A stretch of 64,000 nt of DNA from Escherichia coli (GCF_044324785.1 NZ_CP172127.1), one strand, 5' to 3'; positions 18,260 through 48,186 are shown, numbered from the stretch's first letter. Numbers and translations: made by a program. The notes: generated from the sequence alone by a model not told the origin.

Positions 18260-18430
18260 TCACCTCTCCTTCGAGCGCTACTGGTTTGCTCGTCTGCCAC
18301 CACGTTGCATATGCGTTTGCGTCCTGCGATACGGATGCTTTAGAGCAATTTTTTGTTAATGATTTGTAATTGGCTTGTCAATACTACCCTATTGTTTGCC
18401 GTCATGAAAGATGCGCGTTATTAGGCTATA

Positions 18431-46008: not shown

Positions 46009-47313
46009 TTAATGCAACTTCAAACGCGGACGGATAACGCGGTTAATACTCCCCACCAGCATCATTAATCCAGTTTTAAAGTAACCATGCAGCGCAATCT
46101 GGTGCATTCGGTATAGCGAGATGTATACAAAGCGCGCAATTCGTCCTTCAATCATCATTGAGCCGCGCGTCAGGTTACCCATCAGGCTACCGACGGTGGA
46201 GAAGTTCGACAGCGATACCAGAGAACCGTGATCTTTATACTGATAATTTTTCAGCGGCTTACCGTTCATCTGCGCCAGAATGTTGTTCATTGCGCAGGTT
46301 GCCATCTGGTGTGCGGCCTGCGCACGCGGCGGAACAAAGCCCCCTTCCGGACGCGGGCATGACGCGCAGTCGCCAATAGCGTATATGTCTGGATCGCGAG
46401 TGGTTTGCAGCGTCGGTTCCACCACCAGCTGGTTGATACGGTTGGTTTCAAGACCACCGATATCTTTCAGGAAGTCTGGCGCTTTGATCCCGGCTGCCCA
46501 CACCATCAGATCAGCCTCAATATATTCGCCATCTTTAGTATGTAGGCCGCCTTCATCAGCACTGGTGACCATGGTTTGCGTCAGCACGCGAACGCCAAGT
46601 TTCGTTAACTCATTATGGGCCGCAGCAGAGATACGTGGCGGTAATGCAGGCAAAATACGTTCGCCCGCTTCTACCAGCGTTACGTTCAGGGCTTCGTTGG
46701 TCAGACCTTTATAACCGTAGCTGTGCAGTTGCTTGACCGCGTTGTGCAATTCAGCGGAGAGTTCTACACCCGTCGCGCCGCCGCCGACTATCGCAATGTT
46801 CACTTTGCCATTCGCGCCCAGGTTGGCGGAGTATTTCAGGAACAGATTCAGCATCTCCTGGTGGAAGCGACGCGCCTGGTGCGGGTTATCGAGGAAAATG
46901 CAGTTCTCTTTGACACCTGGCGTATTGAAATCGTTGGAGGTGCTACCCAGCGCCATTACCAGGGTGTCATAGGCGATTTTACGTTCCGGAACCAGCAATT
47001 CACCTTTTTCGTCGCGCAGTTCTGCAATAGTGATTGTTTTCGCTTCACGATCAATATCAATTACGGAACCCAGCTGGAACTGGAAACCATGATTACGCGC
47101 ATGGGCCAGATAGCTCAACGCATCAACGCCTTCATCAAGCGAGCCAGTCGCCACTTCGTGCAGCAGCGGTTTCCACAGGTGGCTGTGGTTACGATCGACC
47201 AGCGTGATTTTGGCTTTTTTCTTGCGTCCCAGCTTATGCCCCAGCTGTGTTGCCATTTCCAGCCCACCAGCACCGCCGCCGACAATCACAATTTTTTTCA
47301 ATGGCGTAGTCAA
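46009..47313 (-). CDS. ndh: NADH:quinone oxidoreductase II (NDH-2)
   Basis: TTG start at 47311-47313 gives [25 protein letters not shown]... (434 aa). Confidence 0.96.
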
Positions 47314-47449
47314 CGTGACCCCCTTAAATTTATTAACCAATTGTTAATTAATGGTTATTAACATAGCTCTTAATTAACAACAGGTTACAGCAATGAAAAT
47401 GTTCTTCGCTATTGAGAATAACATGAATGGTGCATTGGTCATACCAAAA

Positions 47450-47463
47450 TTGATGTTAATCAA
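47450..47463. promoter_or_regulatory. FNR consensus site TTGAT-N4-ATCAA upstream of ndh
   Basis: TTGATgttaATCAA, perfect match; ~140 bp upstream of the ndh start; ndh is an established FNR-repressed gene. Confidence 0.75.
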
Positions 47464-47584
47464 GTTTTGTTGCTGAAAAGATAGGCGACTTTACCGGGCG
47501 AGATCAAAAAACAGAGTTTGTTGTTTATTATTTGAGCTAATTTATGAGGGTGGTATAGCGTGAGGGGTGTATGGAGGACGTTTG

Positions 47585-47634
47585 GTAGGCCTGATAAAAT
47601 GCGCATCAGGTACCGGCAAGGTTACCTGATGCGA
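47585..47634. repeat. REP-like palindromic unit
   Basis: gtaggcctgataaaatgcgcatcaggtaccggcaaggttacctgatgcgacg. Confidence 0.6.
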
Positions 47635-47643
47635 CGAGGGCAT

Positions 47644-48186
47644 TTACCCGAGGGTTTTGAACGCTTTAATACGCTGTAAATGCGGGGAGATATTCTTGAA
47701 TTTGTGCGTCTGCTCTTCGTCCCAGACAATCTCGTAATAATGATGCAGCTCTTCAGATGTCCGCTGGCTGTTAAGCGCTTCATCATTACGCGACAAAATC
47801 ACCAAACAACGATCGCGATTCTTTTCGCGGAAGTTGGTCACACACTTAGTGGCAATATCGGCATACTCTTCCGGGCGATCAATCTTGCCTTCCATGTTCT
47901 CATAAGGGAACAAATTAGGGTTGAAGATCACCTGGCGGATGTCGCAAAGAAAACCAATCCGTTCTGCCCAGTATCCGCCCAGGCCAACGCCGCAAATCAG
48001 CGGACGCTCGTCGACGTTCAGTTGCAACATTTTGTCCACTTCTTTGAGCAGATGCTGCATATCATGTTTCGGATGCCGCGTACTGTAGCTTATCAAGCGT
48101 ACATCCGGGTCAATAAACTGCAATTGTAAGACTTTCTCGTGGTTACCCGGACTGTTAGAGTCAAAACCGTGTAAATAGATAATCAT
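47644..48186 (-). CDS. ycfP: Alpha/beta-hydrolase-family protein YcfP
   Basis: Internal Met [19 protein letters not shown]... gives 180 aa. Confidence 0.88.

Follow-up and report, generated by a model that had tools for sequence, protein, structure and literature searches.

An inverted repeat in the ndh leader of Escherichia coli is likely to be formed by ArcA-P elements and is transcribed into an RNase III-cleaved hairpin

The perfect inverted repeat in the early transcribed region of ndh (+27 to +66) is likely to consist of two head-to-head ArcA-P elements, TGTTAATTAA, and the leader hairpin into which the repeat is transcribed, which is cleaved by RNase III, is likely to be at least partly a by-product of their arrangement. 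The evidence comes from the sequence of one E. coli stretch, from its comparison with other Enterobacteriaceae, and from published chromatin immunoprecipitation, in vitro transcription and RNase III data that could be placed on the same coordinates.

Results and discussion

Genomic setting and coordinates

The stretch that was analysed, hereafter the window, consists of 64,000 nucleotides of E. coli NZ_CP172127.1; it carries both icd and ndh, in an orientation inverted relative to K-12. The product of ndh is NADH dehydrogenase II, which does not pump protons, and the ndh promoter is among the most heavily regulated in E. coli, with sites for FNR, ArcA, PdhR, NsrR, IHF and Fis. A query of 501 bp over the region was matched between ndh and ycfP in 5,425 of 5,426 complete E. 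coli genomes, the region being absent from one genome of the collection, and in 4,582 of the 5,425 the ndh control region shows an identity of at least 99%. Five of the approximately 5,430 control-region matches in the E. coli genome collection are on records labelled as plasmids. Immediately past the ycfP stop codon is a REP-type perfect 11-bp inverted repeat, CGCATCAGGTA...TACCTGATGCG (47602-47633; also in locus L002, 190-260). The spacer between ycfP and ndh is 399 bp long in K-12 versus 330 bp in the window, K-12 having an additional REP-like copy, and this extra copy accounts for most of the band of 95-99% identity among the E. coli genomes.

Between the start codon and about -85, no difference separates the window from K-12 MG1655, and experiments performed with K-12 are therefore directly transferable. 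Positions were converted by the formula: window = 47313 + (1,166,085 - x), where x is the U00096.3 position. The mechanical list of orfs begins ndh 27 nt too far upstream, at an in-frame TTG (47340). The features discussed below are as follows, with ndh and its leader on the minus strand.

46009-47313, minus strand: ndh coding sequence, 434 codons, with the start codon TTG at 47311-47313 (RefSeq K-12 CDS 1,166,085-1,167,389, translation checked)
47320-47326, minus strand: Shine-Dalgarno sequence AAGGGGG, 7 nt past the hairpin and 6 nt ahead of the TTG, unpaired with the hairpin in the predicted fold
47330-47361, plus strand: published three-repeat ArcA site TTATTAACCAATTGTTAATTAATGGTTATTAA, +46 to +77 (Park 2013, Tables S4 and S7, given as 46/77)
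47334-47387, minus strand: extended imperfect palindrome and leader hairpin, +20 to +73, 54 nt, with 5 bp, 12 bp, inner pairs and a 4-nt loop
47341-47351, plus strand: 3′ arm of the inverted repeat, +56 to +66 in the RNA; read antisense to ndh, it constitutes DR1, the first repeat, in the published ArcA box
47341-47358, plus strand: 18-bp ArcA box TTGTTAATTAATGGTTAT, two repeat elements with 11-bp spacing, antisense to ndh (Park 2013)
47355, minus strand: RNase III cleavage position, U00096.3 1,166,043, leader +52, at the resolution of RNA-seq coverage ratios and not base-exact (Gordon 2017)
47370-47380, minus strand: 5′ arm of the inverted repeat, RNA sense UUGUUAAUUAA, +27 to +37, a strong single ArcA repeat element on the ndh-sense strand
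47375-47387, plus strand: IHF-core-like motif TAACAACAGGTTA, one mismatch to WATCAANNNNTTR, +20 to +32, centre +26
47406, minus strand: ndh transcription start (+1), the position of the ROSE paper converted via the K-12 alignment and the CDS start
47435-47447, no strand assigned: perfect palindrome TTGGTatgACCAA, overlapping the -35 hexamer TTGGTA (47442-47447), between FNR I and the -10 hexamer
47450-47463, no strand assigned: FNR I site TTGATgttaATCAA, centre 47456.5, which is -50.5 from the transcription start at 47406

Promoter, FNR site and PdhR-like palindrome

The start of transcription from Pndh was placed at U00096.3 1,165,992 by more than 200 read starts in vitro in the ROSE paper, which combined in vitro run-off transcription with RNA-seq. 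The leader, from 47406 to the TTG at 47313, is accordingly 93 nt long. The ROSE paper gives the promoter hexamers as TTGGTA-21-TATTCT; they are found within 47415-47447, and their 21-bp spacing is far off the 17-bp optimum. A scan for sigma-70 promoters and terminators over 47250-47700 returned no match, a silence that is uninformative because the real ndh promoter is non-canonical.

A preliminary description, made from the sequence of the window alone, had pointed out a perfect FNR consensus at 47450-47463, and the sequence there does match TTGAT-N4-ATCAA at 14 of 14 specified positions. This is FNR I, an established site. In Table 1 of Myers 2013, which cites Green & Guest 1994, the FNR ChIP-seq site of ndh is at -50.5, and the same paper reports an anaerobic, FNR-dependent drop in sigma-70 occupancy and expression at ndh. 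The single match to TTGATNNNNATCAA in the 64-kb window compares with 0.12 expected, and at least one match arises in 11% of shuffles. The consensus match alone is weak evidence, and it is the context that makes the site convincing: FNR I is solid because of its position, the published ChIP-seq peak and the 99-100% conservation of its half-sites (0.99-1.00 in the 80 closest species loci, with the columns of the 4-nt spacer falling to 0-0.2). A second site, which we take to be the FNR II site at -94.5 that is also required for repression, corresponds to 47494-47507 and reads TTGATctcgCCCGG on the minus strand, with one good half-site. Among the other Enterobacteriaceae (80 closest loci), the FNR II region is 0.31-0.39 identical to the window, against near-invariance of FNR I. 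The two-site FNR repression described for E. coli may, on this comparison, be lineage-specific.

The perfect palindrome that overlaps the -35 hexamer has a conservation of 0.99 (80 closest species loci) and is probably a PdhR box, an assignment for which we presume that the PdhR consensus is ATTGGTnnnACCAAT. According to Rolfe 2012, citing Ogasawara 2007, PdhR represses ndh.

The inverted repeat and its probable ArcA elements

The arms of the repeat, ttgttaattaa (47341-47351) and ttaattaacaa (47370-47380), are exact reverse complements separated by an 18-bp spacer, and their outer limits are 28 and 67 bp upstream of the ndh TTG (T at 47313), precisely as the preliminary description had it; its supposition that the repeat falls in the 5′-UTR is borne out by the mapped transcription start, both arms (+27 to +37 and +56 to +66) being within the 93-nt leader. 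A longer, imperfect palindrome has the repeat at its core; the 25-nt arms of this palindrome (47334-47358 and 47363-47387) are 80% complementary and 4 nt apart. The sequence TTAATTAA is its own reverse complement, so that the arms double as a direct repeat of that 8-mer, and the leader as a whole has a G+C content of 30%. Of local dinucleotide-preserving shuffles, 0.34-0.40% contain a perfect 11-bp inverted repeat whose arms are at most 40 bp apart. Over the whole 64-kb window, the same class of repeat is represented by 10 hits at 7 distinct sites versus 0.88 hits expected.

Each arm reads TGTTAATTAA, an ArcA-P repeat element, and the pattern WGTTAATTAW has two matches in the 64-kb window, both of which are the arms. 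The arms also agree with the first nine bases of the older 15-bp ArcA site GTTAATTAAATGTTA, in which the conserved core is TGTTA (Park & Kiley 2014). Park 2013 lists the ndh ArcA box as ttgttaattaatggttat with 18.7 bits (Table S3) and assigns 3.6, 12.5 and 8 bits to the three ndh repeat elements (Table S4). The ArcA ChIP-chip and ChIP-seq peaks of the same study, U00096.2 1165227 and 1165239, correspond to 47394 and 47382 in the window, and these peak centres (47382-47394) are 24-53 bp upstream of the called box at 47341-47358.

When a position weight matrix was rebuilt from 114 published ArcA boxes with ndh excluded, 47341-47358 on the plus strand scored 18.2, which puts it joint top among approximately 128,000 window positions with the known icdA site, whose box is itself within the training set. 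The box contains two 10-bp elements with the TGTTA core at 11-bp spacing, as an ArcA box does, and its score compares with an average of 15 bits among bound sites. At 18353-18370 of the window is the published ArcA box of icdA, TTGTTAATGATTTGTAAT. As a single element, the 5′ arm scores 12.7 with the matrix, the fifth-highest rank in the 64 kb. The 18-mer that it opens on the sense strand (47363-47380) does not qualify as an ArcA box in E. coli: it reaches only 11.0 bits because its second repeat has decayed to GAGCTATG. By the same matrix there are five strong single elements in +27 to +77, three in sense orientation (+27, +43 and +68) and two antisense (+46 to +55 and +57 to +66), and the canonical 11-bp spacing is found in the antisense set only.

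In vitro, ArcA in its phosphorylated form acts as a repressor of ndh transcription (Rolfe 2012), and the sites predicted at ndh in that study are at -57, +36, +52, +57, +66 and +68. In vivo, array data suggested activation of ndh by ArcA, contradicting the repression in vitro; the ndh expression entry in Park 2013 is 'ND'.

These observations suggest a mechanism in which ArcA-P oligomers would nucleate on the antisense box and probably extend to occupy the sense-strand element at +27 to +36, coating approximately 50 bp just past the promoter and thereby hindering RNA polymerase when oxygen is limiting. ArcA would act together with FNR, bound at -50.5, and with PdhR, bound at the -35 hexamer; sites for nucleoid proteins may also be present in this AT-rich stretch. 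Owing to the inverted placement of the two elements, the leader RNA forms a long A-U-rich hairpin, which would thus be at least partly a consequence of their arrangement.

The leader hairpin and RNase III

The minimum free energy fold of the leader is dominated by the hairpin at +20 to +73. Folded alone, the hairpin has an energy of -17.2 kcal/mol (z -4.9), and none of 200 shuffles was equally stable. In E. coli it comprises 21 predicted pairs with small internal loops, equivalent to about two turns of double-stranded RNA, and nearly all of the stem is A-U. In the predicted fold, it stops 7 nt before the Shine-Dalgarno sequence, so that neither this sequence nor the TTG is paired by the hairpin. 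A six-codon mini-orf, AUG UUA AUA ACC AUU AAU UAA, is present within the E. coli hairpin (47344-47364, minus strand, from +43); the AUG is absent in most genera (G45 = U), and the mini-orf is probably fortuitous.

Under 'Intergenic (ycfP-ndh)' in its Table 1, Gordon 2017 reports 108 reads for the rnc deletion mutant and 0 for either wild-type replicate. The coordinates of that paper are those of U00096.3, because 1,166,043 is intergenic in that version only, and the site accordingly falls inside the hairpin. Purified RNase III cut a transcript made in vitro (scored 'Y'), and 5′ RACE revealed multiple sites. The primers for the template map to 47621-47640 and 46951-46970, and the test RNA therefore spanned the entire intergenic region. 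In the same study, processing upstream of ndh was without effect on transcript stability or half-life. A literature search for further RNase III datasets that name ndh in E. coli gave Gordon 2017 only. An Rfam search with a permissive E-value gave only a chance-level match to mir-1497 (16.4 bits versus a gathering threshold of 80, E 0.98).

Conservation of the palindrome in Enterobacteriaceae

The window was compared with the 80 closest Enterobacteriaceae loci from one Ndh genome scan, in which protein identity ranged from 92 to 100%. Identity to the window in these 80 loci was as follows.

Each arm of the repeat: 0.98
Spacer between the arms: 0.68-0.69
Leader from +1 to +19: 0.57-0.58
Four-fold degenerate sites of ndh: 0.48

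These values show clearly that strong selection acts on the arms. All 81 sequences (the window and the 80 closest species loci) retain an ArcA box of 15.3-21.3 bits. In Dickeya and Pectobacterium, ndh reportedly does not respond to O2. In most genera the palindrome is fuller than in E. coli and takes the form TTGTTAATTAA-RR-GTTAT-nnnn-ATAAC-TT-TTAATTAACAA, which as DNA amounts to two overlapping, inverted 18-bp ArcA boxes and as RNA to a 24-bp helix with a 4-nt loop and an energy down to about -25 kcal/mol. The sense-strand ArcA box of Salmonella diarizonae, for example, has 21.3 bits. A near-perfect 24-bp helix is kept in Enterobacter, Leclercia, Salmonella and others (L003-L082, around locus positions 545-565), and a pair of ArcA boxes would not require a helix as perfect as that of most genera. 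Four changes in the Escherichia lineage (+41, +45, +54 and +55, within 47352-47369 of the window) weaken both the inner stem and the sense-strand box.

Covariation was computed from a gap-free alignment of 56 columns and 72 sequences. Full hairpin pairing is found in 94.3% of cells versus 21-53% in slid controls. Thirteen of the 24 stem pairs never vary, and five have changes on a single side, all of them between Watson-Crick and G-U. Double changes are confined to one pair, +34/+59, versus 1.0 pair expected; it changes from U-A to C-G in five sequences, a result reached in 9 of 500 shuffles. In several genera the path at this pair is from U-A to U-G to C-G, yet in 12 of 69 sequences it is broken. 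Overall, covariation scores 0.069 versus 0.071 for shuffled columns, and RNAalifold recovers the same helix in the 72 sequences with a covariation term of merely -0.21 kcal/mol.

Because the arms are almost invariant, these covariation data do not separate selection at the level of RNA from selection at the level of DNA: the comparative data demonstrate that the palindrome is maintained and are silent on why. Invariance of sequence beyond mere complementarity favours sequence-specific protein-DNA recognition, which the near-invariant arms would then reflect. The G-U-compatible pattern, with the few compensatory changes, leaves some room for selection on the RNA.

Nucleoid proteins and other factors

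The IHF-core-like motif TAACAACAGGTTA at +20 to +32 coincides with what we take to be the IHF site centred at +26. A mirror copy, TAACAATTGGTTA, also with one mismatch, is on the sense strand at 47334-47346 (+61 to +73, centre +67). Matches to the IHF core with one mismatch are common in the window, at 1.45 per kb. Reportedly, IHF sites of ndh are centred at +26, -17 and -58, and Fis is said to have a site at +51 and others at -123 and -72. Binding of IHF, Fis and HU at the ndh promoter is published, going by the titles of references that are cited for it and by the EcoCyc sites in the IPOD-HR paper. The IPOD-HR study describes overlapping sites of six transcription factors at the ndh promoter; in exponential phase, occupancy is assigned mainly to IHF together with PdhR or NsrR, and in stationary phase to NsrR and ArcA. 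Full induction of ndh by isobutanol requires IHF, according to published work. A Fur box was also sought; comparison by eye gave approximately 10 of 19 matches, which is unconvincing, and the Fur regulation of ndh that is cited in the ROSE paper is indirect.

Alternative explanations

That the repeat is a functionless product of chance in low-complexity, AT-rich sequence has in its favour the 30% G+C of the leader, the fact that any two copies of the self-complementary TTAATTAA make an inverted repeat, and the occurrence of perfect 8-bp inverted repeats in 12-19% of local shuffles. The 11-bp repeat is found in far fewer (0.34-0.40%), its arms are 98% conserved in the 80 closest species loci versus 48% at neutral sites, and ChIP, in vitro transcription and RNase III data all fall on it; chance origin is refuted by the conservation together with the published binding and cleavage data, and its probability is vanishingly small. 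A possible explanation, on which some doubt must rest, is that the repeat is mainly a platform for nucleoid proteins (IHF at about +26, Fis at about +51, and HU) on AT-rich, symmetric DNA, with ArcA as a minor or competing ligand. It would account for the symmetric placement of the two one-mismatch IHF cores in the palindrome (+20 to +32 and +61 to +73), and it agrees with the published binding of the three proteins, so far as titles and listed sites disclose it, with the exponential-phase occupancy by IHF plus PdhR or NsrR and with the need for IHF in isobutanol induction. However, one-mismatch IHF cores are frequent in the window, and nucleoid proteins tolerate much sequence variation and explain the invariance of the arms no better than ArcA does. 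ArcA elements too are normally degenerate, and the 11/11 invariance of both arms is not obviously explained by ArcA alone. The nucleoid-protein explanation is compatible with an ArcA operator, as the sites overlap.

It is unlikely that the RNA hairpin is the primary selected feature, with RNase III cleavage or the presence of the hairpin near the Shine-Dalgarno sequence tuning translation from the weak UUG start and with the resemblance to ArcA elements being secondary. The stability of the hairpin relative to shuffles, its dominance of the leader fold, its cleavage by RNase III in vivo and in vitro, the near-perfect 24-bp helix of most other genera (down to -25 kcal/mol) and the excess of pairing over slid controls all speak for selection on the RNA, as do the restriction of all five one-sided variable pairs to Watson-Crick/G-U changes and the U-A to U-G to C-G series at +34/+59. 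In addition, a cut near +52 would leave a single-stranded, A/U-rich leader ahead of the Shine-Dalgarno sequence. Against these points, covariation is no better than in shuffled columns, 13 invariant pairs of 24 are not to be expected from a pure pairing constraint where four-fold sites are 48% identical, the pair +34/+59 is broken in 12 of 69 sequences, no Rfam family matches, and E. coli itself has gained four changes that weaken the inner stem. Moreover, the hairpin excludes the Shine-Dalgarno sequence and the start codon, and the stability of the ndh transcript is unaffected by RNase III processing. One could go further and suppose that the hairpin is a post-transcriptional switch, conserved among Enterobacteriaceae, in which the RNase III cut near +52 would remove the 5′ half, free an A/U-rich tract upstream of the Shine-Dalgarno sequence and raise translation from the UUG, so that the palindrome would have two readings, an ArcA operator in the DNA and an RNase III-gated translation element in the RNA; this we consider decidedly unlikely.

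Relation to earlier work and significance

All of the main components of this region are already in the literature and almost nothing about them is new. One addition beyond the published papers is that a single 54-bp palindrome accounts for both the ArcA operator and the RNase III hairpin; ArcA receives no mention in the RNase III study (Gordon 2017). The second addition is the architecture across genera, in which most other Enterobacteriaceae retain two overlapping, inverted ArcA boxes and a longer helix and the inner stem of E. coli is partly degraded. The partly degraded E. coli stem could bear on the activation by ArcA that was suggested in vivo versus the repression observed in vitro. The preliminary description had offered a protein-binding site or an RNA structure as alternatives for the repeat, and both hold: an ArcA ChIP peak and an 18.7-bit box coincide with a hairpin that RNase III cleaves. 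It had suggested that the structure might affect translation from the TTG, for which there is no support, as there are 7 nt between the hairpin and the Shine-Dalgarno sequence and cleavage leaves the half-life of the mRNA unchanged. Among the factors, it had named FNR correctly; only FNR, Fis and IHF footprints had been proposed for comparison, and the ArcA-P elements in the arms had gone unrecognized. It had held that a transcription start downstream of the repeat, together with a lack of any bound factor, would speak against its proposal; the start, 47406, proves to be upstream and ArcA is bound. The result refines known ndh biology and does not define a new kind of element, and the value of the check is mainly negative, in that both of the features that had been flagged are real and published results from ChIP, in vitro transcription and RNase III studies already account for both.

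Comparison with known systems

Among FNR-repressed promoters, ndh is the reference example in Figure 7B of Myers 2013, and no difference from that class was seen. Like other 5′-UTR hairpins processed by RNase III (pnp, adhE and the sites of Gordon 2017), the ndh leader contains a helix of approximately two turns, loses coverage in an rnc-dependent manner in vivo and is cleaved by the purified enzyme at sites mapped by 5′ RACE. Cleavage destabilizes the pnp mRNA, whereas the half-life of ndh is unchanged; cleavage unmasks the ribosome-binding site of adhE, whereas the ndh hairpin does not cover the ribosome-binding site. The ndh stem further differs from this class in being almost wholly A-U and also an operator in DNA.

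With the multi-repeat operators of ArcA-P (Park 2013; Park & Kiley 2014), ndh has in common the 10-bp elements with a TGTTA core, the 11-bp spacing and the three-repeat layout, and the ndh site itself is verified by ChIP and is among the 128 boxes behind the published ArcA logo. Repeat elements downstream of the transcription start are also found at icdA P1 (Park & Kiley 2014), and a second, weaker site on the opposite strand is also found at dctA. The ndh operator differs from others in that array data in vivo and transcription in vitro disagree on the sign of its regulation, and the sense-strand box of E. coli ndh is without the second repeat, whereas other genera retain two overlapping, inverted boxes. 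It is further set apart from other ArcA operators in that its two best elements are exact inverted copies, which together with their flanks make a 54-nt palindrome that is contained wholly inside the transcript.
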